DNA from: an uncultured Pseudomonadales bacterium
Lineage (GTDB): Bacteria > Pseudomonadota > Gammaproteobacteria > Pseudomonadales > Cellvibrionaceae
DNA length: 64,000 bases
Direction of reading: 5' to 3'
Assembly: GCA_947487765.1 (NCBI GenBank)
Contig: CANKXO010000007.1
Location: 22,180 to 86,179, forward strand
Position 1 is the first letter of the stretch. Every line of letters begins with the position of its first letter. Under the pieces are notes generated by a model that was not told the origin of the DNA, did not search any database, and saw only the letters and a list, made by a program, of their open reading frames with translations. The position numbers and the translations under genes are program-made. Positions 26,664-44,093 of the stretch are shown one piece after another.

Positions 26664-26740
26664 ACGTCGATAGCTTAACTGGCAAAAGCTCTGGCCTCCA
26701 AAACCAGGCGATGTAGGTTCGAACCCTACTCGGCGTGCCA
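26664..26740 (+). tRNA. tRNA-Trp (CCA)
   Basis: acceptor acgtcga/tcggcgt (one G-U), D-stem gctt/aagc, anticodon loop ctCCAaa (stem has a C-A mismatch), T-arm gtagg-ttcgaac-cctac, discriminator G + encoded CCA. Confidence 0.75.
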
Positions 26741-26749
26741 AACATAAAT

Positions 26750-26909
26750 GCAGTGATAGCCCCAATAGATCGGCAGATTTTTGTTTCATTGAAGATCAGG
26801 AGAGTGCTGGTTCGACAGCTTTGTAGGAGCAAAAGTTGGACGCTTGTATAGGCGGTCGAGAAGCGATTATGCACAAGGATGTGTATAACAATTCCGGCTC
26901 ACTGCACCA
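26750..26909 (+). ncRNA. Long tRNA-like RNA L2. Acceptor-like 7/7 pairing + discriminator + CCA encloses about 145 nt, including a degenerate T-arm-like hairpin and an internal module paralogous to the one in L5
   Basis: gcagtga (26750-56) pairs with tcactgc (26899-905), followed by a-cca; internal gctg-gttcga-cagc; the block tttgtaggagcaaaagttggacgc...ggcggtcgagaagcgattatgcacaagga aligns with the L5 insert. Confidence 0.5.
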
Positions 26910-26916
26910 GTTTTAT

Positions 26917-26993
26917 TTCGGTGTGAAGCAGAGTGGTAATGCGCCTGACTGTTAATCAGGAGTTCGTTGGTTCGACCCTAGCCGCCGGAGCCA
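26917..26993 (+). tRNA. tRNA-Asn (GTT)-like (non-canonical D-arm)
   Basis: anticodon arm cctga-ctGTTaa-tcagg, T-arm gttgg-ttcgacc-ctagc, acceptor ttcggtg/cgccgga (G-U pairs), G + CCA. Confidence 0.55.
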
Positions 26994-27001
26994 ATTTTAT
27001 T

Positions 27002-27083
27002 GAGGGTGTTGAGCAGGTGGTGAGCTCAGCGGACTGTAAATTCGCCGGAAACTATGTAGGTTCGATTCCTTCCACCCTCACCA
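27002..27083 (+). tRNA. tRNA-Tyr (GTA)
   Basis: acceptor gagggtg/caccctc 7/7, D-stem gagc/gctc, anticodon gcgga-ctGTAaa-ttcgc, 10-nt variable region, T-loop ttcgatt, A + CCA. Confidence 0.8.
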
Positions 27084-27090
27084 AATTTCC

Positions 27091-27168
27091 GGGCCAATAG
27101 CATAATCGGTAAATGCCCCGGCCTCATAAGCCGGAGAAGGAGCGGTTCGAATCCGCCTTGGCCTACCA
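27091..27168 (+). tRNA. tRNA-Met/Ile2 (CAT)
   Basis: acceptor gggccaa/ttggcct, D gcat/atgc, anticodon ccggc-ctCATaa-gccgg, T-loop ttcgaat, A + CCA. Confidence 0.75.
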
Positions 27169-27186
27169 ATTAAATGATTAGTTAAT

Positions 27187-27261
27187 AGCGGTGTTGAGCA
27201 ATGGCTGCTTTCGGGTTTCATATGCCCGAGCTTGTTGGTTCGATTCCAACCACCGCAACCA
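27187..27261 (+). tRNA. tRNA-Met (CAT), second copy
   Basis: anticodon cgggt-ttCATat-gcccg, perfect T-arm gttgg-ttcgatt-ccaac, acceptor 6/7 (A-A at 1:72), A + CCA. Confidence 0.7.
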
Positions 27262-27265
27262 AATT

Positions 27266-27356
27266 GGAAGTGTGGCCGAGTGGTAAGGCAGCGGATTGCT
27301 AATCCGTACAGTGATAAATCGTTGCTGCATGAGTTCGAATCTCATCACTTCCTCCA
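27266..27356 (+). tRNA. tRNA-Ser (GCT), long variable arm
   Basis: ggaagtg...ggccgagtggtaaggc, anticodon gcgga-ttGCTaa-tccgt, long variable arm, T-arm atgag-ttcgaat-ctcat, acceptor 7/7, T + CCA; 91 nt. Confidence 0.9.
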
Positions 27357-27382
27357 AAATACTCCGGTGATGCAATTGGAAG

Positions 27383-27486
27383 GCAGGTTAAGGCTCCTGC
27401 AAAACCTGCATTCCCACCATCCATGGTGGTCACATAGCCCACTTAAAATCGGTTTGTTGCGAGTTCGACTCTCGCCGTCTGCATCA
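27383..27486 (+). ncRNA. Long tRNA-like RNA L4. Acceptor-like 6/7 pairing, a Cys-type T-arm (gcgag-ttcgact-ctcgc), a GCA-containing loop and a covarying internal hairpin; no encoded CCA. A degenerate paralogue lies at 26189-26310
   Basis: gcaggtt (27383-89) vs cgtctgc (27476-82); cctgcaaaacc loop; ccacc-atccat-ggtgg hairpin corresponds to acgcc-atccat-ggcg in the 26196-26251 copy (compensatory changes). Confidence 0.45.
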
Positions 27487-27574
27487 GTTTTTCGTGAGGT
27501 AATTCAATTAGCAGAATGCGATTTTCATAAAATCGGCGATAGTGGTGCAAGTCCACTCTTCACGACCGGTTAAT

Positions 27575-27648
27575 AGCAGCGTGGTGTAACGGTAACACAC
27601 CGGACTTTGACTTCGGTATTTCAGGTTCGAATCCTGGCGCTGTTGCCA
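27575..27648 (+). tRNA. tRNA-Gln (TTG)
   Basis: acceptor agcagcg/cgctgtt, D gtgt/acac, anticodon ccgga-ctTTGac-ttcgg, T-loop ttcgaat, G + CCA. Confidence 0.75.
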
Positions 27649-27688
27649 AATAGTATGTTGAGTAGGGTTCTAAAAATATTTAATTTTT

Positions 27689-27763
27689 GTGCGAGTGGCA
27701 GAATGATGATGCGCGGAACTGCAACTTCCGTTTACGCCGGTTTGATTCCGGCCTCGCACTCCA
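27689..27763 (+). tRNA. tRNA-Cys (GCA)
   Basis: acceptor gtgcgag/ctcgcac 7/7, anticodon cggaa-ctGCAac-ttccg, T-arm gccgg-tttgatt-ccggc, T + CCA; 3-bp D-stem as in E. coli tRNA-Cys. Confidence 0.8.
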
Positions 27764-27769
27764 AATTTT

Positions 27770-27914
27770 CTGGATATAGCACAGCCTAGTAGCGTGTTGG
27801 GTTTAACTAAAATACATCCAAGTATTTTGCCCTTCGGGTTCTTCGAAGTTCAAAACGTTCCAGACGTTTTGTGGAGCTCAAAGTTTGTGGGTTCAAACCC
27901 TGCTATCCAGACCA
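27770..27914 (+). ncRNA. Long tRNA-like RNA L3. Canonical acceptor (7/7), D-arm and T-arm + A + CCA, with an approximately 85-nt structured insert replacing the anticodon region
   Basis: ctggata/tatccag; D gcac/gtgt; T-arm gtggg-ttcaaac-cctgc; the insert contains a cc-ttcg-gg tetraloop hairpin and aaaacgt-tccag-acgtttt hairpin. Confidence 0.55.
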
Positions 27915-27926
27915 ATTAATTTAAAC

Positions 27927-28000
27927 GCGGTGTTGACCGAATGGTTAGGTACCTGCCTTCCAAGCAGAGGAAATGGGTTCGATTCCCATACACCGCTCCA
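27927..28000 (+). tRNA. tRNA-Gly (TCC)
   Basis: acceptor gcggtgt/acaccgc 7/7, anticodon loop ctTCCaa (4-5 bp stem), T-arm atggg-ttcgatt-cccat, T + CCA. Confidence 0.75.
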
Positions 28001-28008
28001 AAATTTAA

Positions 28009-28082
28009 TGAAGGTTGGCTTAGTGGCTGAGCACCGGACTTTTAATCCGGCTAGATGGGTTCGATCCCCATACCTTCAACCA
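28009..28082 (+). tRNA. tRNA-Lys (TTT)
   Basis: acceptor tgaaggt/accttca 7/7, D gctt/gagc, anticodon ccgga-ctTTTaa-tccgg, T-arm atggg-ttcgatc-cccat, A + CCA. Confidence 0.85.
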
Positions 28083-28116
28083 ATTACAATAAAACAACTA
28101 AAAGGAGATCGTATTA

Positions 28117-29312
28117 TGGCGATTAAAAAAGTATTGGCGCCGCATAAAGATCAGCGGTTGCCTGTAAAAATTTGGACGGATGATATTGATTACAGCACGC
28201 AGGCTCAGTTGAGTCGTGTAGCGAACTTACCATTCGTTTATAAGCATGTAGCAGCGATGCCTGATGTACATCTCGGAAAAGGCGCCACTGTTGGTTCAGT
28301 GATTGCAACCGATAAAGCTATTATCCCTGCAGCTGTGGGTGTGGATATTGGATGTGGAATGAATGCAGTGAGATTATCTATTAAAGCAAAAGATTTGCCT
28401 GATAGCCTAAAATTGATTCGAAACGGAATTGAATCAGTTGTACCTTTAGGTCCCGGAGGTCAACATCGTGACCCCAAAATTGCTGGTGGTCATGATATAT
28501 CAATGCGTCTATGTACTATTTTTGAAAAACACCCGAAGTTAAGTAAGCGCGTTAAAGTGAATGGGTTTGCGAAACAATTAGGAACGCTGGGCTCAGGAAA
28601 TCATTTCATTGAATTATGTTTAGATGAAAATGATGACGTGTGGATTATGTTGCATTCAGGGAGTCGTGGAGTTGGCAATAAAATCGGTATGTACTTTATC
28701 GAAATTGCTAAACGAGAAATGGAAAAATGGATGATTCACTTACCTGATAAAGACTTGGCTTATCTATCTGAAGGGTCAGAATATTATGATGACTATATTG
28801 AAGCAGTTTCTTGGGGGCAAGATTATGCGGCATTGAATCGCACGCATATGATGAATGCAGTAATGCTAGAACTACGTAAGTATTTACCTGCGTTTACAAT
28901 CACACAAGAGGCTATCAATTGCCACCATAATTATGTTGAAAAGGAAAATCATTACGGCAAAAACGTATGGGTAACGCGTAAAGGCGCAATCCGTGCGAGA
29001 AAGGATGATCTTGGTATTATTCCCGGGTCCATGGGTGATAAAAGTTTTATTGTTCGTGGTAAAGGTGAATCTGAATCATTTTGTTCTTGTTCCCATGGTG
29101 CGGGTCGACGATTGAGTCGTACTGCAGCTGCAAAAACTTTTTCCGTTGCTGATCTCGTATCAGCTACTGAAGGAATAGAATGTCGTAAAGACAGGGGTGT
29201 CATTGATGAAATTCCAATGGCATATAAGCCTATCGATAGCGTGATGGATAACCAAACTGATCTAGTGGATATAGTTCATACACTTCGACAAGTCGTCAAT
29301 GTAAAAGGCTAG
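28117..29312 (+). CDS. rtcB: RNA ligase RtcB (3'-phosphate/5'-OH RNA-splicing ligase family)
   Basis: AMPDVHLGKGATVGSV, GCGMN, GSGNHFIEL, HSGSRGVG, CSCSHGAGR; RBS aaggag 9 nt upstream of the ATG at 28117. The tracked ORF from 27885 is an artefactual extension across two tRNAs. Confidence 0.9.
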
Positions 29313-29358
29313 AAAGGACTTAGCCTTTTCTTTCACCTCTTTCCTCATTTTTAATTTA

Positions 29359-29432
29359 GCCCAATTGGCATAGTGGTCGTGCAGCTGCTTTGTAAGCAGC
29401 AGAGACAGGTTCAATTCCTGTATTGGGCTCCA
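29359..29432 (+). tRNA. tRNA-Thr (TGT)
   Basis: acceptor gcccaat/attgggc 7/7, D gcat/gtgc, anticodon gctgc-ttTGTaa-gcagc, T-arm acagg-ttcaatt-cctgt, T + CCA. Confidence 0.85.
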
Positions 29433-29441
29433 GTTTACATC

Positions 29442-29593
29442 GCCTGATTAGTTCAATTGGACTTAGAGCATCCGCCTACGACAATTTTGCAGGAGCAAAA
29501 ATTGGGCGTCTATAGAGGCGATCGTGAAACGATAATGTGCAGGACGCATATTACAAACGGGAAGATGCGGGTTCGAATCCTATTCAGGTGCCA
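29442..29593 (+). ncRNA. Long tRNA-like RNA L5. Acceptor 6/7 + G + CCA, canonical D-arm, T-arm-like gcggg-ttcgaat, and an approximately 95-nt insert paralogous to the L2 insert
   Basis: gcctgat vs ttcaggt; D gttc/gagc; insert aattttgc-agga-gcaaaaatt hairpin, atcgt-gaa-acgat hairpin; aligns with L2 (tttgYaggagcaaaaRttggRcg...ggcgRtcgNgaaRcgatWatg). Confidence 0.5.
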
Positions 29594-29601
29594 AATTTAT
29601 T

Positions 29602-29678
29602 ACTCTCGTAGCTTAATTGGATAGAGCGTCTGTCTTCGAAACAGAACGGTGTTGGTTTGATTCCAACCGAGAGTGCCA
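29602..29678 (+). tRNA. tRNA-Arg (TCG)
   Basis: acceptor actctcg/cgagagt 7/7, D gctt/gagc, anticodon tctgt-ctTCGaa-acaga, T-arm gttgg-tttgatt-ccaac, G + CCA. Confidence 0.85.
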
Positions 29679-29917
29679 ATAATTATTATTAATAAACCCG
29701 AGAATCTTTAGGTGTGGCCGTGGCAGATTGATAAATTTACCGGGAGTAAATTTAGACGCGGGAGAGAAGCGACGGCGCCCGTAGGGGTTGTAACATGGAT
29801 GTTACAAACCAATGTGCGCTTAACTTTGGCTTAAGTGCCCTTGGTTTTTGGAAAGGGGAGTTCAGGTCGCATCGGTCACCCCTAAAGGTTTTTACTAATA
29901 GAAAAGGAGGTCAAGCA

Positions 29918-30211
29918 ATGAGACTTGCTATAACGCGATCAGGTTTTTATAACGCTGATCTTTATTGCGCTGATACTCGTACAGCTAAAAGAGTGTTGCG
30001 TGAAAAAAATATTTCCATATTGGCTATCGACTATTATCTAGTTGGCCAGGGAAATGGTTGCGATATTATTGATTGGGCTAAAAGAAATGCAGTTTTGCCT
30101 AATTTTATCGTTGTTATTGAACGTAATCGCAACAAACGAGCCTTATTATCGAATACATTACGAAATATAGGTTATCGCTCTGGTGATGATACTACCTTTA
30201 TAAGGCATTAA
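29918..30211 (+). CDS. Hypothetical small protein (97 aa), alternating beta/alpha pattern (receiver/Rossmann-like?)
   Basis: RBS aaaggagg 7 nt before ATG 29918; MRLAITRSGFYNADLY...ISILAIDYYL...NFIVVIERN; the longer tracked ORF from 29795 lacks an RBS. Confidence 0.5.
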   Translation: MRLAITRSGFYNADLYCADTRTAKRVLREKNISILAIDYYLVGQGNGCDIIDWAKRNAVLPNFIVVIERNRNKRALLSNTLRNIGYRSGDDTTFIRH

Positions 30212-30250
30212 ATTTAGTTAAAGCGACCACTATGATTAATTGAGAATAGG

Positions 30251-30814
30251 ATGATGAATATTCAAATTTTGCAGCTATCGAAGTCAGGTCACCCAATGTC
30301 TTGGGTGAACCGTGAAGAAGCCGCAACACTGTATGCAAAAAATAGGGTGTTATGGGAGCTGGGTGACGAAGTTATTCCAATTGTCGGCGGTATTAATCGC
30401 TTGGGCATTCAAAGTCGCTTCGATATGGCACCAATTATTGCTTGTGATGGTGATGTGAAACAACCTCGTTTACGACCATCGTTAAGTAATCGTATGCTGT
30501 TTCGCCGAGACGATTACCGATGCTTGTATTGTGGTGTTCAGTTTAATCACGACGGATTAACGCGGGACCATATTGTGCCGCGTATTCAAGGTGGTTTAGA
30601 TCGTTGGGAAAATGTGGTTGCTGCTTGTAAACGCTGTAATCACAGTAAGGGTGGTCGAACGCCAGAGCAGGCAGGGATCAAGCTATTGGCCATTCCATTT
30701 GTGCCGAATCCGTTTGAGTTTCTGTTTTTGGCAAATCGACATATTCTGGCTGACCAGATGGATTATCTTGCGACAAGCTTTTCGTCAAAGCGAGACTGGA
30801 AAAAAGTGGCTTAA
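30251..30814 (+). CDS. HNH endonuclease-domain protein
   Basis: CLYCG...DHIVPRIQGG...WENVVAACKRCNHSKGG (HNH with zinc-ribbon cysteines). Confidence 0.8.
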   Translation: MMNIQILQLSKSGHPMSWVNREEAATLYAKNRVLWELGDEVIPIVGGINRLGIQSRFDMAPIIACDGDVKQPRLRPSLSNRMLFRRDDYRCLYCGVQFNHDGLTRDHIVPRIQGGLDRWENVVAACKRCNHSKGGRTPEQAGIKLLAIPFVPNPFEFLFLANRHILADQMDYLATSFSSKRDWKKVA

Positions 30815-30834
30815 CTATTAAGCCACCCACATAT

Positions 30835-30862
30835 TTGGAATACAGGTATTAACCTGTATTCC
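30835..30862 (+). terminator. Strong hairpin after the HNH gene (11-bp stem, weak U-tract)
   Basis: ggaatacaggt-atta-acctgtattcc. Confidence 0.5.
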
Positions 30863-30991
30863 ATACCGATGTTTATACGTATGTTGGCGAAACAGCGGCT
30901 CTGGTTCTGAATGCCAGGCTGGCACAGTCATGTTTTATGTCCTGTGTACCGATTCACTAACACGTTAAACAGTATGCTCTGAAAAAGCATA

Positions 30992-31064
30992 GTTTTTGTA
31001 GCTCATAGGGTAGAGCAATCGACTCATAATCGATGGGTAGCAGGTTCGATTCCTGCCTCAAACA
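30992..31064 (+). tRNA. Degenerate tRNA-Met (CAT)-like gene (weak acceptor 5/7, no CCA)
   Basis: D gctc/gagc, anticodon atcga-ctCATaa-tcgat, perfect T-arm gcagg-ttcgatt-cctgc. Confidence 0.4.
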
Positions 31065-31084
31065 CAGTCAGTTTTAATAAACTG

Positions 31085-31424: not shown

Positions 31425-32576
31425 ATGATTCTTTGGAAAACAATCGATATTGCGGAACATGAACGTGTATTACTTTATGTCCGTGATCAATTTAAACAAG
31501 TGCTAGGCCCAGGTCGGCATCGTGTCTCGACCTTGAAGGGAAAAGTTCGCCAGGAAACCTATGATATTACCGAAGTAGTATTCAGGCATCCTAAAGAAAA
31601 ATTTTTGCTGTCACACTACCCAGAAAAACTGGCAATGCACCTTGAGCAGTTTGACTTAAAAGATACTGAAGTGGGCTTGTTATATCGAAATGGCCATTTA
31701 ATGAATGTGTTGGCACCTGGTAGTTTATTTACAGTTTGGAAAGGTGTTGAGGATATTCGTGTTGACGTTATCGATATTAATAACCACTATCAGATAGAAG
31801 AGTCTTTAATTGGCTTATTGGGGCGAGGCATTAAAATTGGTCAAAGCCGAGAAGTCGTTAATGCGATTGCTTATGCAGAGGTAGTTGATGAGCATGTAGG
31901 TTTATTGCTGGTTAACGGTAAGCTAGAAAAGATCTTGCAACCGGGTAGTTACGGCTTCTGGAAATATAACCGTTCAATTGCGGTTAAAATGCTTGATCTT
32001 CGTTTACAAGCAATGGAGGTTAGTGGCCAAGAGATTCTGACCAAAGATCGCGTGAGTTTGCGTATTAACTTAACTGGTAGTTATAAAATTAAAGATCCTC
32101 AAATTGTTGCCTCTAAGGTGAATGATTACGCAGGTTTTATCTATCGTGAGTTGCAATTAAGTTTGCGAGAAATTGTAGGCACACAATCATTAGATGGATT
32201 GTTAGAAGATAAAGATGCTTTAAATTCTGTAATTACTCAGAGTACACGAGAAAAATTAGCGGAATACGGTATTCAGTTAATGAGTGTCGGGGTTAAAGAT
32301 ATTATTTTACCTGGTGAAATGAAGCAGATTCTGAATCGAGTAGTAGAGGCGCAAAAAGAGGCTGAAGCTAATTTGATTAAGCGTCGTGAGGAAACTCAGG
32401 CAATGCGTTCATTACATAATGCTGCCAAGATGATGGAAAACAACCCTGTGTTGTTACGTTTAAAGGAATTAGAAGCATTAGAAAGAGTGACTGGGAAAAT
32501 CGATAAGATTTCTGTCTATGGTGGCCTTGATAGTGTTCTTAATGACTTGGTAAAACTGGCGCCGGTCAAAACCTAA
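31425..32576 (+). CDS. SPFH/band-7 domain protein (cytoplasmic, duplicated N-terminal beta-domain)
   Basis: SPFH core TKDRVSLRINLTGSYKIKDPQIVASKV...QLMSVGVKDIILPGEMKQILNRVVEAQKEAEANLIKRREETQAM; no N-terminal TM. Confidence 0.7.
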   Translation: MILWKTIDIAEHERVLLYVRDQFKQVLGPGRHRVSTLKGKVRQETYDITEVVFRHPKEKFLLSHYPEKLAMHLEQFDLKDTEVGLLYRNGHLMNVLAPGSLFTVWKGVEDIRVDVIDINNHYQIEESLIGLLGRGIKIGQSREVVNAIAYAEVVDEHVGLLLVNGKLEKILQPGSYGFWKYNRSIAVKMLDLRLQAMEVSGQEILTKDRVSLRINLTGSYKIKDPQIVASKVNDYAGFIYRELQLSLREIVGTQSLDGLLEDKDALNSVITQSTREKLAEYGIQLMSVGVKDIILPGEMKQILNRVVEAQKEAEANLIKRREETQAMRSLHNAAKMMENNPVLLRLKELEALERVTGKIDKISVYGGLDSVLNDLVKLAPVKT

Positions 32577-32580
32577 AGAA

Positions 32581-32611
32581 AGCTGCTAGGTTATTTAGCA
32601 GCTTTCTTTGA
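32581..32611. terminator. Bidirectional terminator hairpin between the convergent SPFH and RT genes
   Basis: aaagctgcta-ggttatt-tagcagcttt (10-bp perfect stem). Confidence 0.6.
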
Positions 32612-32749
32612 TGAGAAGTTTACCTTTTAAATGACTGTTTCATGCAATGATGAAACAATAGCAATATCGAACATCATTTGTTATTAATGAGTTAATTTTT
32701 TTATAATTGAATGCTAGGGTTGAAGTTCATAAGATGTTTTTATTGAGCG

Positions 32750-34531
32750 CTAGCGAAAAGATACAATCAAAAATATAAGTACAGCAATTGCCGCAAAAAT
32801 CATTACGCGAGCGAAGGGTTGCATAGAATCTGTATTAGATGCATCCGATAGCCATGGTGATTGAGATTCTTTCTGTTGTTGTGACTTAGTTTCTTCCTTT
32901 TTTGTTTGTTTTTTTGCGGTCGCTATTTGTTTAAGCTCTTCTGTAGTATTCTCTTTAACAGGTGGTGCTGGTGGCTCAGCTTGCCACCAGTTTTCGCGTG
33001 GTGCTTCACCGGCAGCGGCCTTTAAGCGTAAAAGTTTATTATTTAATTTGCCAATGCGACTTGGATTAACTTGATAACTGTATTTTTGTTTTAGTTGTAC
33101 TATTTGCTTTTGTAAAGGAATGCCCTTGCTAGGGTTAACCATTGCGACAAAGTTGGCGTAACCTTCTATGGAGCACAATAAATTGCTACTGCTATTGTGA
33201 GAACGATGAGCCCAGTGCTTACCCTCTAGCCCGCTTTTGTCAATTTGATGTAGTAAGGCTCTGAAGCGCTTTAAGGTCTTGCGATCAACGCTAAGGTTAT
33301 TATTCACTACCACGCCGGTCACTTCTTGTTTTTTATGCTTGCGCATAATGCGTGTTTTTTCGGGGTGAACAATAAAACCTTCATCCTTAATAATACTATG
33401 ACAACGCCACAATAGTTTTTTTACAATGCTGTCGTCAATATTCTGTGGATTAATATCATCGCCCTTGTTGGAGCTTGCCGAAAAAGTAACATCGTCAGCA
33501 TATCGCGTATAAGTAAAGCCTAATTTTTTAGCCATCCCTTGTAAGCGAGCATCCAATTTTCTACAGATGATATTGCTAATATTAGGGCTAGTTGGCGCTC
33601 CTTGCGGTAAAAAGCGCTCTCCGTTACTAACAAACCAAGACTGACTATCTAGTTCAACCTCCTGTGTATTCGCTTCGGTGCAAAGTAAGGCTAGTACTGT
33701 TGCAATGTGTTCACTGTAACCTAGAGCTTTAAACATCCCCTTAACTCTTGGATAGCTAATTGTTGGAAAGAAGTTTTTAAGGTCGAGGTTAATAACAATA
33801 TCTTTGCCTACATGAGGCGCAGCATTGGTTACGATAGAGCGCGTGCGTACAAAGCCATGAGCGGCATCATGTAATGCCAGCGGCTCTAAAATATTGGATA
33901 AAACCCAATACTGGGCAAGTTTCAACCGTGGCATAGGGGCAGATATTAGGCGAGTTCCACCGGTTTTCTTGGTCATTTGGAAGCGTTGATAATGACTAAT
34001 CGTGCAGACATCTTTTTGGTAGACTAAAAAACGTAGCTCATTAACGGTAATGCCCATGGCTCTGGCCAACATTTGGCTGTCGTGCAGTAGTGGTAACTGT
34101 TGGGCTTGGAGTTTGTCTTCATCGCTGTTAACTTTTGATAGCCCTATCGATAAACCTTCCCCTACGAAGGTAATAAATTTCTTTTGGATGTCGTACCAAT
34201 TCTTTGCTCGTTGGTATCGTGTTTCATTGCGTTCTTTACGCTTTTCTTCTCTACGAATAAGTGCTTCTTTTTTACGCTGTTTGTGTAACTCCTTTAGTGC
34301 TTGCTCTGGGTCTTGATACAATTGCTGTTGCTTTCCTAATTCACGCAGTTGCTTTTGTAACTGCCCGCGCTTTTCAATAAAGGTTTCTGTTAGTGTTGGC
34401 TGTTCACTATTTTTTGGCCAAAACCCAAGACGTTTCATCTCTGCTAAAATATAAACTTCTTTACCACCTGTTTCGCGTACGCGCTGGTAGAGTTCTTGGC
34501 GGCTTAATTTTTTAGTGCTTTCGTCAGACAT
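32750..34531 (-). CDS. Retron-type reverse transcriptase with a long N-terminal extension and a C-terminal transmembrane anchor
   Basis: RLISAPMPRLKLAQYWVL, NAAPH (NAxxH), NLDLKNFFPTI, QGAPTSP, YADD, VTGVVV (VTG); collinear with Ec86 RT; C-terminus MIFAAIAVLIFLIVSF is hydrophobic after a Lys/Gln-rich low-complexity linker. Confidence 0.85.
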   Translation of the reverse strand: MSDESTKKLSRQELYQRVRETGGKEVYILAEMKRLGFWPKNSEQPTLTETFIEKRGQLQKQLRELGKQQQLYQDPEQALKELHKQRKKEALIRREEKRKERNETRYQRAKNWYDIQKKFITFVGEGLSIGLSKVNSDEDKLQAQQLPLLHDSQMLARAMGITVNELRFLVYQKDVCTISHYQRFQMTKKTGGTRLISAPMPRLKLAQYWVLSNILEPLALHDAAHGFVRTRSIVTNAAPHVGKDIVINLDLKNFFPTISYPRVKGMFKALGYSEHIATVLALLCTEANTQEVELDSQSWFVSNGERFLPQGAPTSPNISNIICRKLDARLQGMAKKLGFTYTRYADDVTFSASSNKGDDINPQNIDDSIVKKLLWRCHSIIKDEGFIVHPEKTRIMRKHKKQEVTGVVVNNNLSVDRKTLKRFRALLHQIDKSGLEGKHWAHRSHNSSSNLLCSIEGYANFVAMVNPSKGIPLQKQIVQLKQKYSYQVNPSRIGKLNNKLLRLKAAAGEAPRENWWQAEPPAPPVKENTTEELKQIATAKKQTKKEETKSQQQKESQSPWLSDASNTDSMQPFARVMIFAAIAVLIFLIVSFR

Positions 34532-34638
34532 CTGCCTGTCTCCCTAATATAAATAAGGATAAATGTTGAGTGTTAAAAAAATGGATAATGATAGTTGTTA
34601 CAAGAACAAATAAAGAAGAGAAGTGCGCAAGATAAAAG

Positions 34639-34868
34639 GGTGCCAGCGTGCTCAATGTTTCCTTCGTAGAGCTCTTAGTACTGGATTGATCAACTCGACG
34701 CGGCACGCCCCTACTATCGCTCATTGACTTCATGGAAGTCATACCGCAATAGCGATAGTAGGGGCTGTGCCGCCCTATGAAGATCAGGCCAGTGACGCGT
34801 GTGTAGTCTATAAACCAGAACGGCGATGCACCGCTCAAATTGCAAGGTAGATAAGTCACGCTGACACC
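34639..34868 (-). ncRNA. Retron msr-msd non-coding RNA (a1/a2 inverted repeats flanking a long msd hairpin)
   Basis: a1 ggtgtcagcgtg (minus strand, plus coords 34857-34868) pairs with a2 cacgctggcacc (34639-34650) over 12-14 bp; about 72-nt near-perfect palindrome at 34701-34772 (cggcacgcccctactatcgct...agcgatagtaggggctgtgccg with inner gacttc-atg-gaagtc). Confidence 0.7.
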
Positions 34869-34931
34869 TGTGCTAGTATAGCAGTGTTGTTAGGTTTTAA
34901 AAGAGCGCTATTAAAATTCTTCATGATCTCT

Positions 34932-36572
34932 TTAACCGTTTGCTAAGGAATATTGTTTTCTGATCGCTAATATATGTTCGCATGGCCCCATGCGCAGTAA
35001 ATTCGTTCGATAAAAATAACAGTCGCAGCTAGCCTCTTTTAAACGTTGATCGCCGTCAATTTTAATCTCAGTGTTCAAATGGTGTCCGTCATCAATGACT
35101 GTTCCTTGAATTTGAGCACCTCTTTCATTTTCTAGCTTATGATGAATTGTCACCAAGTTGGCGGCCACAAATCGAGCAGACTTTTCATCGCGCTCATTAG
35201 CAAAACGCAATGAGTCCATCGGTAAAGGTTGTTGGCTAAGTTCACGGATACGATAAACACTTCCGGCTAAATCATAAAGCACTTGCCCCTGTTGGCTATA
35301 GGCAGCCAATGCAGATTTCACTACTGACTCATCTAAATGCAGTCGTCGTGCCAGTGAGTCACTGGATTCTTGCCATGTCTCTGATAGTGCTTGGTAAACA
35401 CGTTTAAGTGTTACTTCGTCAACATCACCTCTAGGCGCTAATAGATCAAAGTTACCCATTCGTGACCAATCATTTGCTGACCAGCCCGACAAACCTAAGG
35501 TAAATGTCATATCGCCTAAATCGGCAACGTAAAAACTAGGTAAGCCATTACCTAATAGATGTACCGTAAATTTTTTGGCGATAGGGATTAAACGCTCCAA
35601 TATATGCAGGCGACGGCGCCCCCATATACGAATTGATCTAGCGTCATTTCCTGTATAAATGCTTCTGGCTAATATTAATTCTGTGCCCCATGGCTCTAAG
35701 ATAATTTTAATAGGCTCATCTGATGCCAGTTCAAATCGTATTGCCCGAGGGCCTACGCGCTCTCTTTTACGCCGCAACATATAACAAATATTGTGAATAT
35801 CCATTGGGTGCAATGTTAATGTGGTCATGGGTAAGGTCATAGCTGAGCTTACCTGTAAAAAACCACGCACCCAGCTTTCAGGAAGATCAATTTTCTTTTC
35901 GTCAAATTGTTCCTCATGGCTGGTTTGCATACTGAAACCATCGGGGTCAATTGCCAATGCTGTTTGGCGATACTCTCTTATTTTTTGAAATTCGTTGTAT
36001 AAACCTTCCGAGTAATCAATATTTGTGGTGCCGTAAGAAGTATCGGTTATATTATCAAATACGTCATAGCTACAGCTAAGTTTTCCGTAACTTGATTCAT
36101 CTTCAGAAAAACATTCAAAAAAAACTTCGTCGGGATGGACGGTAATTACTGGGTCAAGTACATACCAAGCATCCATATCGGTTTTATAAAGATGTTTGAA
36201 ATATTTGTTCTGAGCTGTATAAAAAGGCCCCATTAATGCTTGGCTTTGCTTGCTAAGTTCAGATAGTTCTTTGCGCACAAGCTCAATTTCGCCTTCCACC
36301 TGTGACTTGCGACCAATAAATTCTGCCAATAGCCGCTCTTCTTCTTCAGCTAGCCAGCGCTCGTATTCGCTGCGATCTTTTGGCTGAAAGCGCATATCAG
36401 AAATCACAACATTGTGTAGTGCCGATATCGCCTCACGAAAAGCTATTTTCTGCTTAAGCTGTCCTACAAAATAAGTAGGTAGGCGCAAACTGTCAGGCAC
36501 AAAAGATACATCTGTACTCGCTGCATTGCTCGCAACATGGCTCTGCCCATGATATCGATAACGAAATTCCAT
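34932..36572 (-). CDS. SWIM zinc-finger protein (retron accessory / putative effector)
   Basis: C-terminal CxCx(n)CxH: EASCDCYFYRTNLLRMGPCEHILAI; 546 aa. Confidence 0.7.
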   Translation of the reverse strand: MEFRYRYHGQSHVASNAASTDVSFVPDSLRLPTYFVGQLKQKIAFREAISALHNVVISDMRFQPKDRSEYERWLAEEEERLLAEFIGRKSQVEGEIELVRKELSELSKQSQALMGPFYTAQNKYFKHLYKTDMDAWYVLDPVITVHPDEVFFECFSEDESSYGKLSCSYDVFDNITDTSYGTTNIDYSEGLYNEFQKIREYRQTALAIDPDGFSMQTSHEEQFDEKKIDLPESWVRGFLQVSSAMTLPMTTLTLHPMDIHNICYMLRRKRERVGPRAIRFELASDEPIKIILEPWGTELILARSIYTGNDARSIRIWGRRRLHILERLIPIAKKFTVHLLGNGLPSFYVADLGDMTFTLGLSGWSANDWSRMGNFDLLAPRGDVDEVTLKRVYQALSETWQESSDSLARRLHLDESVVKSALAAYSQQGQVLYDLAGSVYRIRELSQQPLPMDSLRFANERDEKSARFVAANLVTIHHKLENERGAQIQGTVIDDGHHLNTEIKIDGDQRLKEASCDCYFYRTNLLRMGPCEHILAIRKQYSLANG

Positions 36573-36643
36573 ATTTTTGCCTGAGAAATTTTTCTGAAAA
36601 TTATGAATCTAATGCGTTTTTGTATAATTTTTATATAGCGTTT

Positions 36644-39600
36644 TTAAACACCCAGCGATGCAGGTTGTTTAATGGGTACCTTTTTGGCTGTTAAGGGTGA
36701 TGCTATATCTGGATACAATGATTGTAATTTAAGCATAGCTTTTATCAAAGCGGCTTTATCTTTATGTACCATAGTTAACGAAATTCGTTCCAATAAAGGC
36801 ATTACCATAGTGGCAACACTTATATCTTTTTCTGCTTCTCTTAATAAAAACAGTAGAATCCTATCTTTACAAACGCGACCCTTATTAATTTGTGATAACG
36901 CTGTTGTAAAATAAGCTTGTAATGAAAGTATATGGCTAGGAATACCCGCCGCGTATTCTTCTAAAAAACTGCTGACAAAAAGCTGTACATTATTTGACGG
37001 ATGCTGGCTTAACTTAAGCAAGTATTCTGGGCCATACTCAGCTTTAAAAAAAGATTGTAGTATTTCGCGTCCAAAGCTTTGTACGTCATCTCTGATGCTG
37101 TCGCAAATAAAAATAACAATTTCAGGGCTCCAATCTTCTTGGCTGTATTGTTGTCGAAAAAAATCAAAGCCAAAGGTTCTTGCATCGTCCCAGTTGCTAT
37201 TTAGAATTCGAAGAGCATCACGACTGTATTGTTTAATTTCATCTACATTTTTCTCGTAAGCCTGAAATGCAAACTGCCTGACAGATACATCGCTATGCTG
37301 GCCTAATATTGCCCATTGTTTGACTGAAAATATATCTGCATTACGTTCAGTTAAGGTTATGGCGCCCACTCGTTGAGCACAGATAGATTGTGCCTGTAAT
37401 AAGCGCCATAGCATATCATTGTCTAGTTTCGTTAAATGTGATTGTGCCAATGAAGTAAAAAAGGCAATTAATTCTTCATGTTGCCCAGGCTGCTCTTCAG
37501 ACTTAAATGTCAGCGCTAATAATGTATTTTCAATCTGCTCGGATCCCTGTTGAGAGTTGGTCATTAGGCGGGAAAAAATAGAAAGTAGGGAGGCGCGCTC
37601 TTGAGTATCGCCCTTGCAATACAAGCCGACTAATAAGTCTAATTGTTTGATTAAGTCTTTATCGGCTTGTTTGCCTAGTAATGCAGCACCTATCCCTCTA
37701 ACTTCGGCTGAGGATGAATCATGAATTGCCTGTAATAAGCTGTCGGGAATATCTCCATAAGATATTTTGTGTCCAAGCAATAATTTTGCACCTAATATTT
37801 TTCTGGGTACTTTCTCGTCATGAATTAAACGTTGCAAACTAGTAAGAGGGAAGTGTTTAATTGCATCATTTAGGTTCTCAAGTGCAAAATCGGCCAAATA
37901 CTCTGCATGCTTTTCGCTTAAGTTGCTGTTCTCTAAAAAGATAGAATCAACTATAGCTTGCAATAGTTTCTCAGCATTTCTACCAGAAATCTTTTGCTGG
38001 CAAACAGCCGTTTTAATGTCACTTTGTACATCACTATGAAGAATCAATAGTAGTGATGTTAATAGTGAAATATCATCATTAATTTTGAACCTTAGTAAAG
38101 ATTGCTTACCTAATACTCTAGCCTCAGTCAGCGAGCTACTTAGTAGAGCGATTAATAATTCACTACTTAAATCGTCTTGTTTAATGCGTTCGCGAACAAT
38201 TGCTAGTGCAAATTCACAAGTACTCGCATAGTTGCTGTTCAGTAAAAGAGCTAAATCTACAGGGCTGATTTTCTGGCAAAAACTCGGTTGATTTTCTAAT
38301 ATCCGACGAGCGAAAGGATGAACCAGCTCGCATCGACTTGTTTTTAATAAGCGTAGTGCATGGCTAGGCTTTTGATCCCAAAGTTCAGCAAAGCATTCGG
38401 TACGAGATCCATTTATCAAGGAAGTACCGTCGGTATTCGACTCATCACTTTTTATCCAGACGCGGCCACTAGGTGCAAGTTGATACCCTGGATGATGTTC
38501 GAAGAGGATATGATTTAAGCTTAAGAAGCTGGCAAAAGGGCCATATTCATTGCTGGATATCAACTGGCGTTGCCAATTGTCGCCACTATTATCCCAGCGA
38601 TAAACCTCTGATGTTCGAGGCTTGCTACCATGCTCATCATTAATCGCAAGCAATGATTCTGTTGCCATATCAACATAACGGAGATCACCGGCCTGTCCTA
38701 TACGCCTGAGTACTCGCCAGCTACGACGGCGAAAGTAATCTCGTGTACGATGCGAGAAGGTCAATTTTGCATTGGCCTTTTTCAGTTCTTTAGATGGTTT
38801 AATACTGCCTTCACCGGGAAGCCATGCCCAATCCCAATCATTACGAAAAAATGCGGGTGCTGTTTCTATACGCTGCGCTAATAAGCCAAATACAGACCCG
38901 TCAAGACGTAGCTCGGATGCTTTATAAATTGATCTAATGCCCCGAAAATATCCTGGGGTTAGGGGAATAATAGCCAGTTGACTTAATAATGCTTGATGCA
39001 ATATGGGGTAAGCTAGCGATAGCTGATAACAAAGTACCAATAGCTGATTAGTATTGTTAACGTTGTCACTAGCCCCATGACTGAGCAACGCGCCAAGTTG
39101 CTGATGAGCAGTGCTACTATTTCCTTCCATAACAGCAGATTTAAACTGTGCAGGAAAGTGCTGCCAATGGCTGCCTAACAAGGCTTTGCGCGATGTTTGG
39201 TCGCTGATTAATAGTTGCGATTCAAAGGCTATATGACAAACTTGTGCTTGTTTGTGTTGCCTCAAGGTTTCTAAAACCGCCTTGTGTTGCGTGGCAACCA
39301 TCCGCCCCAAGGCCCAAGCAATAGAGTAATCCTCTAACCAATGGCCTTTCTTAATATAGGGCACAATTGCATTGGCAATAGGTTCACAATCTCGGTGCCC
39401 TAATTCCCCGAGTCGCCATATCATGCGGCTGCGAGATTTAGTCTCTTTTTCATTGGGTAAATGATTGAGTATCTGTTCAATTAGTTTAAAAGGAAAGTCA
39501 TCGGAGGCAAGATTGCTAGAAGGGACGCCTGCAAGTGTAGGCGAGGTAGTAGTAGGGGACTGTTTTGCTTGTTCTCTATCCCAATAGCCTTTATTGACTT

Positions 39601-39820
39601 TGGATACAACAACACTATCAAATAGCTTCTCTGCTTTGCTAAGCTCAACAGCTTCAGGGGTTTTAGTGCCTTCTCTTAATTGATTGCCGCGACGCCCGTA
39701 TCGAAAATTAACGAGATAACGTTCATCTTTTCGGCTTGCTAACTCACATAAATCAACTTCATAAACTTTGTCGGAATTGCCTTCCTGATACACCAATCGA
39801 GATTGCTTGATTAGTCGCAT
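36644..39820 (-). CDS. Large WGR-like + alpha-helical repeat protein (MolR/DUF4132-like), retron accessory
   Basis: N-terminal KVYEVDL...YLVNFRYGRRGNQLREGTKT resembles a WGR domain; the remaining roughly 950 aa are Leu-rich helical repeats. Confidence 0.55.
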   Translation of the reverse strand: MRLIKQSRLVYQEGNSDKVYEVDLCELASRKDERYLVNFRYGRRGNQLREGTKTPEAVELSKAEKLFDSVVVSKVNKGYWDREQAKQSPTTTSPTLAGVPSSNLASDDFPFKLIEQILNHLPNEKETKSRSRMIWRLGELGHRDCEPIANAIVPYIKKGHWLEDYSIAWALGRMVATQHKAVLETLRQHKQAQVCHIAFESQLLISDQTSRKALLGSHWQHFPAQFKSAVMEGNSSTAHQQLGALLSHGASDNVNNTNQLLVLCYQLSLAYPILHQALLSQLAIIPLTPGYFRGIRSIYKASELRLDGSVFGLLAQRIETAPAFFRNDWDWAWLPGEGSIKPSKELKKANAKLTFSHRTRDYFRRRSWRVLRRIGQAGDLRYVDMATESLLAINDEHGSKPRTSEVYRWDNSGDNWQRQLISSNEYGPFASFLSLNHILFEHHPGYQLAPSGRVWIKSDESNTDGTSLINGSRTECFAELWDQKPSHALRLLKTSRCELVHPFARRILENQPSFCQKISPVDLALLLNSNYASTCEFALAIVRERIKQDDLSSELLIALLSSSLTEARVLGKQSLLRFKINDDISLLTSLLLILHSDVQSDIKTAVCQQKISGRNAEKLLQAIVDSIFLENSNLSEKHAEYLADFALENLNDAIKHFPLTSLQRLIHDEKVPRKILGAKLLLGHKISYGDIPDSLLQAIHDSSSAEVRGIGAALLGKQADKDLIKQLDLLVGLYCKGDTQERASLLSIFSRLMTNSQQGSEQIENTLLALTFKSEEQPGQHEELIAFFTSLAQSHLTKLDNDMLWRLLQAQSICAQRVGAITLTERNADIFSVKQWAILGQHSDVSVRQFAFQAYEKNVDEIKQYSRDALRILNSNWDDARTFGFDFFRQQYSQEDWSPEIVIFICDSIRDDVQSFGREILQSFFKAEYGPEYLLKLSQHPSNNVQLFVSSFLEEYAAGIPSHILSLQAYFTTALSQINKGRVCKDRILLFLLREAEKDISVATMVMPLLERISLTMVHKDKAALIKAMLKLQSLYPDIASPLTAKKVPIKQPASLGV

Positions 39821-40200
39821 AGCTTCCTTAAACTCTTTTATTTTTTGATAAACTTATTTTTTTGAGTATAGCATTATCCTAATAATGGACAAGACTACAT
39901 GGCTATATTATATCTAGAGTTTACACTCGCTCTATCGTAAAGACTATGCTTCTATATACTTCATTCACGTTTTATTAGATAGCAATTATAACCTTTACCC
40001 CTTTCCCTGACGTGATTGTAAAGTGTTAATTTCATATTTGGGTTTACGGCGGTGCTATAATTTTGGTTGCTGTGTCAGGAAGTGTCGCGTTATTTTCAAT
40101 TCTAAAGGTTATCTTGATGAATGTGTTACCTAGCCCGATGACAAATATGTAATTACTATATTTTAAACAATTTTTAAATGCTTAACTGGTAGTAAAGTAT

Positions 40201-41460
40201 ATGCAATTAAATAATAAAAAAGTTTACTTAGTTGGCGGAGCTGTCCGTGACGAACTATTGAATCGCCCAGTTTCAGATCGAGACTGGGTGGTGATTGGTG
40301 TGACTCCAGAAATGTTGATTAAGCAAGGCTATCGGCAAATCGGTAGTGACTTTCCTTGCTTTTTGCATCCTGAAACCAAAGATGAATATGCACTGGCACG
40401 TACGGAGAAAAAATCAGGAAGCGGCCATACAGGGTTTGTGTGTGATTTTAGTCCTGAGGTAACTCTCGAAGAAGATTTATCTCGGCGCGACCTCACCATC
40501 AATGCCATTGCTAAAACAGTAGAGGGTGAATATGTTGATCCTTATGGAGGCAGAGAAGATTTAGAGAATCGAATATTGCGCCATGTATCAGATGCATTTG
40601 CTGAAGACCCATTGCGTGTGTTACGCGTTGCTCGTTTTGCCGCTCGCTACGCAGAGTTAGGTTTTACGGTACACCCAAGTACATTAGCCTTAATGGCTCA
40701 GTTAGTCAGTTCTGGTGAACTATCAGAATTAACACCAGAGCGAGTCTGGAAAGAAATGTCTCGTGCATTAACAGAGCCTCGTCCTAGTGAGTTCTTTCGT
40801 GTGCTTCGTGCCTGTGGTGCTTTGTCGGTACTATTACCCGAAGTAGATTGCTTATTCGGTGTTCCTCAGCCACCCCAACATCATCCTGAAATTGATACCG
40901 GCGATCATGTAATGATGGTGGTTGATATCGCTAAAGAGCGCTTTGATTCTATTAATATCACTTGGGCTGCCTTAATGCATGATTTAGGAAAAGGGCTGAC
41001 GCCTGAAGAGGAGTGGCCCAAGCATATCCGTCATGAAATTAAAGGTGTGCCATTAGTTGAGGCTGTTTGCGAGCGTTATAAAGTTCCGCGTGATTTTAAA
41101 ACATTAGCAATGTTAGTTTCTGAGCACCATTTGCGTTGCCATAAATTATTAGAGATGAGACCAAAATCCATTATGCGCTTATTAGAAGCGCTGGATGCTT
41201 TTAGGCGGCCAGAGAGGGTTAAATATTTTGCGCAAGCCTGCGAAGCCGACGCCAGAGGTCGCTTAGGTTTAGAAGATAGAGATTACCCACAATCGTCACT
41301 ATTAATAAAATGCGGTGAAGTGGGGAAGGATATAGATATTAAGCCTTTACTGGATGAAGGCTACCAAGGCTTGAAGCTGGCGGAACAGATTCGCCGTTTA
41401 CGACTAGGGGCGATTAAGAGGTTTATGGCAAATTATCGAAAAGAAATATTAGGGAAATAA
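40201..41460 (+). CDS. cca: CCA-adding tRNA nucleotidyltransferase with HD domain
   Basis: LVGGAVRDELLNRPVSDRDWVV, TERKSGSGHTGF, RRDLTINAIA, LRVLRVARFAARY, HHPEIDTGDH, collinear with E. coli Cca. Confidence 0.9.
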   Translation: MQLNNKKVYLVGGAVRDELLNRPVSDRDWVVIGVTPEMLIKQGYRQIGSDFPCFLHPETKDEYALARTEKKSGSGHTGFVCDFSPEVTLEEDLSRRDLTINAIAKTVEGEYVDPYGGREDLENRILRHVSDAFAEDPLRVLRVARFAARYAELGFTVHPSTLALMAQLVSSGELSELTPERVWKEMSRALTEPRPSEFFRVLRACGALSVLLPEVDCLFGVPQPPQHHPEIDTGDHVMMVVDIAKERFDSINITWAALMHDLGKGLTPEEEWPKHIRHEIKGVPLVEAVCERYKVPRDFKTLAMLVSEHHLRCHKLLEMRPKSIMRLLEALDAFRRPERVKYFAQACEADARGRLGLEDRDYPQSSLLIKCGEVGKDIDIKPLLDEGYQGLKLAEQIRRLRLGAIKRFMANYRKEILGK

Positions 41461-41464
41461 TAAG

Positions 41465-42367: not shown

Positions 42368-42864
42368 GCCTTTATTTTTTAATTGAACCACTTTGTATTT
42401 GTTAACCTATAAAAATACTCATTAATATAGTTGTAGTTAATTTTTGTAAGGAAATGTTATAAAAATTATGAATAAAGATATTGATATATAATTTTAATAT
42501 GACTATAGTGCGCGCAGTTTTTACAAATCACCTTTAATCAATACTCTACAGGAGGCTCAAGTATGTTGTATCTAAATAATCAAATCGCATTGTTGGGTTT
42601 GTCTGTATCTTGTTCTTATAGCTAACATTTTTGTTAACGCTATAGCTATCTTTCAGATAAATCCTCTTAGCTAAACGTCTTAACTGTACGTTATAGGTAG
42701 TTTTGCGTAATTTTTTAAGCTAATTCTTGTTGGTCAAATTCTATCGACCATACATTTGCATTTTTTTATGCGGTTAGCGATTAATCTGTATCGCCTTTTG
42801 TTTCAACTCGAAAATATTTTTTGAGGGGGCAATGTCGTGCCTAAAAACATGAGTAGAAATTTTA

Positions 42865-44091: not shown

Positions 44092-44093
44092 AT

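Follow-up and report, generated by a model that had tools for sequence, protein, structure and literature searches.

What kind of reverse transcriptase (RT) carries a long N-terminal extension and ends in a hydrophobic helix, and with what partners might such an enzyme work? The question is raised by a gene at 32750..34531 on the minus strand of a 64,000-nucleotide (nt) stretch of DNA from an uncultured Pseudomonadales bacterium of the Cellvibrionaceae (contig CANKXO010000007.1). We refer to this whole stretch as the window, and coordinates are those of the window unless another locus is named. The open reading frame (ORF) encodes 593 amino acids (aa), starts with ATG behind an AGGGAGA ribosome-binding site and has its stop codon at 32750-32752. 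On the basis of the letters and their translations, the original prediction had called the product a retron RT with a C-terminal membrane anchor. We find that the gene belongs to a complete type XIII retron, encoded entirely on the minus strand between 32750 and 39820, and the best overall explanation, which we regard as likely, is that its RT is anchored in the membrane and works along the lines proposed below.

The retron assignment was borne out and can be sharpened. The RT matches the PADLOC model RT_XIII over aa 3-552 (E 8.8e-188, 623 bits), the runner-up model reaching 323 bits, and aa 188-408 correspond to Pfam RVT_1 (E 3.7e-24). In the classification of Mestre et al. (2020), type XIII is RT clade 10 and includes the classical retrons Mx162, Mx65, Sa163 and Ne144 (PMC7736814); the placement of our RT in clade 10 is by profile scores. 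The fingers, palm and thumb of the core occupy 33077..34126 (minus strand; aa ~136-485), as delimited by motifs, alignment and the match to Ec86. The hallmarks NAxxH, YADD and VTG on which the original prediction drew are found at aa 236-240 (NAAPH), 344-347 and 404-406, together with QGAPTSP at 310-316, and all four motifs are invariant in an alignment with 40 homologues. Collinearity with the Ec86 RT also holds. Profile positions 135-472 align with Ec86 residues 8-316 (profile E 4e-65, the best among solved structures), and in Foldseek comparisons the predicted model matches the Ec86 RT with a target-normalised template-modelling score (TM-score) of 0.79-0.81 at 32% identity, making Ec86 the best solved relative by fold as well. 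The RT thus belongs to retron type XIII, clade 10, and its catalytic core is intact.

Could the enzyme nevertheless be some other defence-associated or mobile RT, of the DRT/UG, abortive infection (Abi) or group II intron kind? Models of the group II intron RT and of Drt2 do give weak cross-matches, and the structure of the RT resembles that of all RTs. However, these cross-matches fall far under the respective cut-offs (group_II_RT_mat, 57 bits against 300; Drt2, 37 bits against 390), whereas PADLOC retron models score 200-623 bits, so that the enzyme does not group with non-retron RTs. Moreover, NAxxH and VTG, which are motifs specific to retrons, do not vary, a covarying msr-msd RNA adjoins the gene, and Pfam and Rfam scans detected no intron RNA, maturase or endonuclease domain at the RT locus. 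We therefore rejected this identity, the chance of which appears to be vanishingly small.

A conserved, covarying non-coding RNA (ncRNA) of the retron type lies right upstream of the RT gene, at 34633..34876 (minus strand) within the 400-bp gap that separates the RT gene from the gene for an accessory protein with a SWIM zinc finger. It was delimited by its fold, by covariation and by a covariance model. The RNA is ~230 nt long and folds at −106.9 kcal/mol (z = −6.95). Repeat a1 (34857-34867) pairs with a2 (34640-34650), the inner a1/a2 stem being CCUU/AAGG, and fold and alignment place an msr hairpin at ~34818-34836 and a long msd hairpin at 34680-34793, all on the minus strand. Eight sequences from Gamma-, Beta- and Alphaproteobacteria show compensatory changes in 34 of the 63 pairs. 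A covariance model built from these eight proteobacterial sequences scores 214 bits at 34633..34876, and it gives a full-length match right upstream of the RT in ~70 of 80 loci, these being among the type XIII tblastn genome matches listed. The matches lie beside type XIII RTs in Myxococcota, Cyanobacteria, Bacteroidota, Acidobacteriota, Planctomycetota and Verrucomicrobia, and the myxobacterial ncRNAs of L014, L025, L031 and L059 are recognised by the same model. Its length, 242, agrees with that of the 241-nt primary transcript of Mx162 (PMC6868368). In the wider alignment, 91.6% of cells are paired as against ~40% when the partners are slid, double changes occur in 57 of 63 pairs, and the covariation score is 0.69 compared with 0.07-0.10 in the slid controls, although these figures are somewhat inflated by the fitting of the alignment to the covariance model. 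Across the ~80 loci, the share of G-U pairs is 15.7% in the msr hairpin but 1.1% in the upper msd stem, a scarcity to be expected if that stem has to pair in DNA form too.

The inner stem is followed by an invariant CCUUGCA. Within it G34843 is invariant and fits the xxGC context listed for retrons (PMC6868368). By analogy, G34843 would be the branching or priming G, and the template for the multicopy single-stranded DNA (msDNA) would run from ~34665 back to ~34795, or ~130 nt. An Rfam search of 32000-41000, at gathering thresholds and at E<=10, returned no retron RNA family, and only tRNAs were reported elsewhere; because our own covariance model finds the ncRNA, this blank reflects the content of the library and not absence of the RNA. 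A 111-aa ORF with a GTG start at 34524-34859 (minus strand) overlaps the ncRNA; it is spurious and almost certainly no gene. As a sigma-70 promoter for the ncRNA we could put forward only a weaker TATACT −10 box at 34875-34880 with a poor −35 element, which the promoter scan did not report, and we did not retain it.

The ncRNA region varies in some other type XIII loci. In nine loci from other phyla, two or three tandem ncRNA copies precede a single RT (L035 2232-3079; L019 7237-7979; L042 5054-5563; L052 883-1542; L055 7313-7903; L032 1007-1545; L006 2923-3425; L012 7244-7840; L011 7349-7906). Identity between the copies is just 75-86%, and at six of these nine loci divergence is greater in the msd core than in the msr; one RT would be expected to make several different msDNAs there. 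Two cyanobacterial loci have a complete RNase III gene between ncRNA and RT (L049 7232-7945; L066 7271-7948), with Ribonucleas_3_3 (E 1.7e-30) and a double-stranded RNA-binding motif. An uncharacterised 302-aa ORF occupies the same position in L026 and L038.

Two accessory genes complete the retron. The SWIM protein (34932..36572, minus strand; 546 aa) matches PADLOC SWIM_XIII with E 1.3e-232. Upstream of it lies a gene for a 1058-aa protein (36644..39820, minus strand) with an N-terminal WGR domain and HEAT/ARM repeats; it matches WGR_XIII (E 0, 1030 bits) and also the HEAT-ARM_XIII models, and Pfam recognises WGR at aa 12-85 (E 7.8e-5) and HEAT_2. Each of the three type XIII proteins has its own model in PADLOC, and the set of WGR/HEAT, SWIM, ncRNA and RT has been catalogued as type XIII, the RT co-evolving with the WGR/HEAT protein (cluster 216) (PMC7736814). 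The order WGR/HEAT, SWIM, ncRNA, RT is kept in ~60 of the 80 loci, spanning at least eight phyla, and in the three contexts closest to ours, where the flanking genes are entirely different. Since the order is constant and the flanks differ, we take the module to consist of the three genes and the ncRNA. A promoter-like site at 39865..39892 (minus strand), TTGTCC-16-TATACT with an extended TG, was picked up ahead of the WGR/HEAT gene by a consensus scan and is a candidate, on weak evidence, for the operon promoter; shuffled sequence yielded more such sites than the real one.

The SWIM protein has the features published for cluster 114, namely a DEDE motif, a winged helix and a C-terminal CxCx12CxH, and a role as a transposase-derived nuclease has been proposed for it (PMC7736814). 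Its layout comprises N-terminal helices, a PCNA-like double domain (~140-365), a winged helix (~386-445) and the SWIM zinc finger (C516-x-C518-x12-C531-x-H533), the five invariant acidic residues D140, D148, E153, D186 and E225 all falling within the PCNA-like region. In the AlphaFold model, which has a mean predicted local distance difference test score (pLDDT) of 76 and 80-94 in the core, the acidic region adopts a PCNA-like two-domain fold. The top Foldseek match is human PCNA (E 2.4e-10, target-normalised TM-score 0.74-0.77), and no RNase H-like or transposase fold is among the top matches. A DDE/DEDE transposase-like nuclease fold is thus unsupported by the prediction, and the model suggests that the SWIM protein would have the fold of a sliding clamp rather than that of a nuclease. 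Sequence identity to PCNA, 9-1-1 and beta clamps is 8-14%. Unlike these clamps, the SWIM protein has added N-terminal helices, the winged helix, the SWIM zinc finger and the five invariant acidic residues. Our literature search found no paper linking the SWIM protein to sliding clamps.

Beyond the thumb, the RT continues with a post-thumb segment, a linker and a hydrophobic end. The post-thumb segment (32960..33076, minus strand; aa 486-524) is defined by conservation of LNKKLxRxKAAxGExPRxxWWQ. In the gamma clade of the 40-sequence alignment W515 and W516 are near-invariant and stand at a fixed 58 aa past GYANFVAMV. The AlphaFold2 (AF2) model gives this segment a pLDDT of 85-91 and no regular secondary structure. 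The low-complexity linker that follows (32822..32959, minus strand; aa 525-570) is recognised by its composition of K, E, Q, T and S (K8, E6, T6, Q6 and S5 among the 44 residues of aa 525-568) and is modelled in part as a single charged helix (530-556). Past P524 it is unconserved, the linkers of homologues differing in both length and sequence. The predicted tail anchor, a single transmembrane helix, is encoded at 32753..32821 (minus strand; aa 571-592), and its hydrophobic core VMIFAAIAVLIFLIVSF (aa 576-592) is followed only by R593. This core has a Kyte-Doolittle value of 2.65 and a sum of −4.3 on the Hessa scale, where it is the sole negative segment, the next best being +5.1; with no other segment below +5, the RT lacks an N-terminal signal or a second transmembrane segment. 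AF2 predicts a helix over 571-592 with a pLDDT of 81-93. The Lys/Gln/Glu-rich linker and single terminal helix described in the original prediction are therefore present, and the membrane tether suggested there is a reasonable reading, strengthened by the conservation of such tails in homologues.

We took as a terminal transmembrane window any last 19-aa window with a Kyte-Doolittle value >= 1.6. Of the 120 homologues closest in the database (48-70% identity; from Citrobacter, Vibrio, Enterovibrio, Photobacterium, Hahella and others), 97 have such a window, each time behind an unconserved linker, and several of the remaining 23 have Trp-rich hydrophobic ends. Among 54 family representatives, obtained by clustering at 50% the sequences that cover the N-terminal extension, ~20 have one to four transmembrane helices past the RT. 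The sequence of the tail helix is not conserved among homologues and only its hydrophobicity is kept, a pattern that, at the very end of the protein, speaks for selection of a membrane anchor. When the tails of the 80 loci are arranged by phylum, those of Proteobacteria are transmembrane helices. In Myxococcota, Bacteroidota, Acidobacteriota, Planctomycetota and Verrucomicrobia a variable P/A/S/T/K linker leads to an end of the form KK[KP]WWK[LF][FW] or KPWW[DN]VV, and in tblastn alignments the WW with which the proteins of other phyla end falls on the position of W515-W516. A few relatives have an amphipathic terminal helix (for example ...KLFNFIGSLVKGKK), with a hydrophobic moment of 0.65-0.81 as compared with 0.78 for the membrane-targeting sequence of FtsA. 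That the WW tails might likewise be amphipathic membrane helices was unsupported by the hydrophobic-moment test, a weak test that fails the MinD control too. As judged from sequence, the whole proteobacterial branch retains the predicted C-terminal anchor as an architecture. A transmembrane segment in type XIII RTs is mentioned neither by Mestre et al. (PMC7736814) nor in the 2026 SPIRE survey, and our full-text literature search for one was empty; the membrane anchor of the RT is apparently undescribed.

No transmembrane helix was seen in the SWIM or WGR/HEAT protein. Two Bacteroidota loci each have a small predicted membrane ORF between their WGR/HEAT and SWIM genes (L012 4610-5050, 146 aa; L050 5385-5927, 180 aa), with Kyte-Doolittle maxima of 2.2 and 3.0, respectively, and no Pfam match; the RTs of these two loci have no transmembrane helix. 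In the cyanobacterial loci we did not find a membrane protein that could replace the missing RT tail, the inserted genes being those for RNase III and the uncharacterised 302-aa protein.

At its other end the RT carries an extension (34127..34531, minus strand; aa 1 to ~135), defined by conservation and by AF2 helices. The original prediction had put its length at about 170 aa. A long extension is indeed present, but it measures ~130-145 aa, given that the Ec86, Ec67, St85 and other retron models begin to align at aa 135-155; aa 170-188 is where Pfam RVT_1 starts, not where the extension ends. AF2 predicts two short helices (11-21 and 24-34), which contain a conserved EMxRLGFW motif, and then a long charged helical hairpin (46-73 and 75-118), with a pLDDT of 90+ from ~aa 80. 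In the 40-sequence alignment R11, K24, E31, M32, R34, L35, G36, W38, P45, L58, R86, W112 and G124 are invariant. By tblastn the extension is matched from query residues 1-11 in loci of Myxococcota, Bacteroidota, Cyanobacteria, Acidobacteriota and Planctomycetota, the myxobacterial loci conserving it from residue ~10. Profile and Foldseek searches found no solved structure that covers the N-terminal extension or the C-terminal tail. An 'extended N-terminus' is a published trait of the Mx162, Mx65, Sa163 and Ne144 RTs (PMC6868368), and conservation across these phyla indicates that the extension is a family-wide module, already known for the oldest-studied retrons. The suggestion that the protein matches no well-studied retron RT architecture consequently does not apply to the N-terminal extension, a hallmark of the Mx162 group, and appears, from the literature searched, to hold only for the C-terminal anchor.

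Comparison with known systems makes clear what is shared. With the Mx162 group (Retron-Mxa1 Mx162, Mxa2 Mx65, Sau1 Sa163 and Nex2 Ne144) our retron has in common the RT clade and the extended N-terminus, the SWIM and WGR/HEAT genes in the same order, and an ncRNA of ~240 nt with a long msd stem. It differs in its host, the chromosome being gammaproteobacterium-like, and in the 77 aa that the RT adds past the WW (linker and predicted tail anchor), whereas the myxobacterial relatives end in ...KKKWWKLF. The priming G would lie in UUGC as compared with CAGC or GAGC (PMC6868368), a comparison made with Mx162 as described. Ec86 (Retron-Eco1; 7v9u, 7v9x, 8qbk) shares the retron RT fold and the NAxxH, YADD and VTG motifs, but its RT is 320 aa long, without N-terminal extension, post-thumb WW segment or transmembrane helix, its partner is a nucleoside deoxyribosyltransferase (NDT)-like effector, and its msDNA is a short 86 nt. 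The RT-Toprim protein of Ec67 (Retron-Eco2), our second-best solved relative, is also ~600 aa with extensions at both ends. There, however, the C-terminal extension is a Toprim nuclease effector, where ours is a linker and transmembrane helix with no enzymatic domain, and the N-terminal extension is unrelated, the match starting at aa 144 of our RT. Retrons with membrane effectors, such as those of clade 3 with two-transmembrane (2-TM) proteins (e.g. Ec48) and type II with a bitopic NDT protein, also include a membrane-spanning element (PMC7736814), but on a separate effector; here it would be on the RT itself, the accessory proteins being soluble. The architecture is thus largely of the known Mx162 type, and routine annotation of defence systems would be enough to label the locus. 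What seems undescribed is the conserved proteobacterial membrane anchor together with the predicted clamp fold of the SWIM partner.

How might such a retron work? We propose that the folded ncRNA is bound by the RT, which would use as primer the 2'-OH of G34843, the nucleotide lying immediately 3' of the a1/a2 stem. Reverse transcription of the msd arm would yield an msDNA of ~130 nt with a long stem, as has been demonstrated biochemically for Mx162. The N-terminal extension could add surface for the long msDNA, for the WGR/HEAT partner or for both. The tail anchor would insert in the inner membrane with the enzyme on the cytoplasmic side, so that ~45 flexible residues would tether the RT-msDNA and its partners to the membrane. 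The target of the clamp-like SWIM protein and of the WGR/HEAT protein would be DNA, whether that of the msDNA stem or that of an invader. If characterised retrons are a guide, the complex may be a phage-sensing guard that controls the accessory proteins, and the function of the locus is probably anti-phage.

The tail, which is central to this proposal, could be read in other ways. One is that it serves mainly to dock a partner. Here the aromatic element at the end of a flexible linker, W515-W516 in our RT or the terminal KKxWWKxF of other phyla, would contact the PCNA-like domain of its SWIM partner much as PCNA-interacting peptide (PIP) boxes and beta-clamp motifs contact clamps, and Proteobacteria would have gained the transmembrane helix only later, as a secondary feature. 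Proteins that bind clamps usually have a short aromatic motif at their very C-terminal end, preceded by a disordered linker. The near-invariance of the WW in the gamma clade, its recurrence at C-termini in Myxococcota, Bacteroidota, Acidobacteriota and Planctomycetota, and the finding, from a weak test, that WW tails are not amphipathic helices would all agree with docking. On the other hand, the motif fits neither the PIP consensus Qxx[LIM]xx[FY][FY] nor QL[SD]LF, the confidence of the WW segment in the monomer model suggests packing in cis, cyanobacterial RTs lack the WW tail while keeping the SWIM gene, and docking leaves the one to four transmembrane or amphipathic terminal helices of relatives unexplained. 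We regard docking as possible but rather doubtful as the main role. The transmembrane helix might alternatively be the toxic effector itself, its tails oligomerising and damaging the membrane when phage disturbs the RT-msDNA, much as proposed for separate 2-TM effectors. The precedents of clade 3 and type II (PMC7736814) and the variation from one to four helices among relatives lend this some appeal. A lone tail-anchor helix, with just one residue on the exoplasmic side, would nevertheless be ill suited to forming a pore, its sequence is unconserved and only hydrophobic, and relatives have amphipathic helices, WW peptides or nothing in its place while the two large accessory proteins are constant; such a role appears improbable.

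Membrane anchoring and an anti-phage role, as we propose them, also have to be weighed against several other points. Cyanobacterial RTs end directly after the thumb, and several other type XIII RTs are also tailless, so that membrane attachment cannot be essential to the core chemistry of the family. The transmembrane calls come from hydropathy scales and no trained predictor, the ncRNA call rests on our own covariance model with no matching Rfam family, the wider covariation figures share the inflation mentioned above, and the branching G and the ends of the msDNA have been placed solely by analogy. The msDNA, the membrane location and the phage role of this particular locus are likewise inferred, and we found in the literature no experimental work on type XIII function, nor a structure, an effector mechanism or a phenotype. 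Type XIII correlates moderately with host 16S rRNA (0.78), and the authors of that analysis raise a domesticated, non-defence role (PMC7736814). According to this alternative the retron is vertically inherited and serves housekeeping DNA or RNA metabolism at the membrane instead of fighting phage, and the clamp-like partner and the WGR domain do recall DNA repair and replication factors. Against this, the flanks differ completely in the closest relatives and across loci, as for a gene set of mobile islands, the distribution over phyla is patchy among the matches listed, and PADLOC and DefenseFinder list type XIII as a defence candidate. Moreover, to our knowledge, all characterised retron types defend against phage. 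Domestication therefore seems unlikely, and a membrane-anchored type XIII retron with a probable defence role remains our preferred explanation.

The retron is flanked in the window by tRNA and RNA-repair genes (26664-31065 and 40201-44789, both plus strand). On one side an array of 14 tRNAs is broken by an RtcB ligase gene (28119-29312), a weak cREC_REC-like ORF (29795-30211) and an HNH endonuclease gene (30251-30814); on the other lie genes for a CCA-adding enzyme (40201-41460), an RlaP nucleotidyltransferase (41465-42367), a second RtcB (42865-44091) and PrfH (44094-44789). The tRNA array and RNA-repair genes are absent from the three closest contexts, and we rejected them as parts of the retron. 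An SPFH/Band7 gene at 31425-32576 (plus strand), whose product has no obvious transmembrane helix, was rejected as well, being convergent with the RT gene, absent from the three closest contexts and otherwise found in 2 of 80 loci. In those two distant loci, which lack SWIM and WGR genes, a similar gene lies within ~2 kb of the RT (L069 4740-5786; L078 11189-12304), and such proximity in 3 of 81 loci, in three different arrangements, is probably coincidence. The space between this gene and the RT gene holds a perfect inverted repeat of 14 bp (32575-32609; loop of 7 nt), which directly follows the stop codon of the SPFH gene and is likely to be a bidirectional terminator. No convincing direct or inverted repeats marking an insertion were found around the retron.

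Type XIII is among the commonest retron types, ranking third in abundance in a 2026 metagenome survey, and includes the first retrons ever found. Taking the observations jointly, we put forward, as a tentative view that is more likely wrong than right, that type XIII retrons are membrane-tethered nucleoprotein machines with clamp coupling and DNA-end sensing. The RT-msDNA would be kept at the inner membrane by a transmembrane helix in Proteobacteria and by amphipathic or cationic-Trp peptides elsewhere, and would be linked, perhaps by way of the WW peptide, with a PCNA-like SWIM clamp that rides the long msDNA duplex or incoming DNA, while the WGR/HEAT protein would sense DNA ends. If true, this would be a mechanism unlike that of any solved retron, and it would replace the proposed transposase-like nuclease effector. 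If the tail anchor and the clamp fold both hold, they would point to where type XIII retrons act, at the membrane, and on what, duplex DNA. For the proteobacterial branch, an RT apparently built as a tail-anchored membrane protein and a constant partner with a predicted clamp fold would provide two testable handles on the function of the family.

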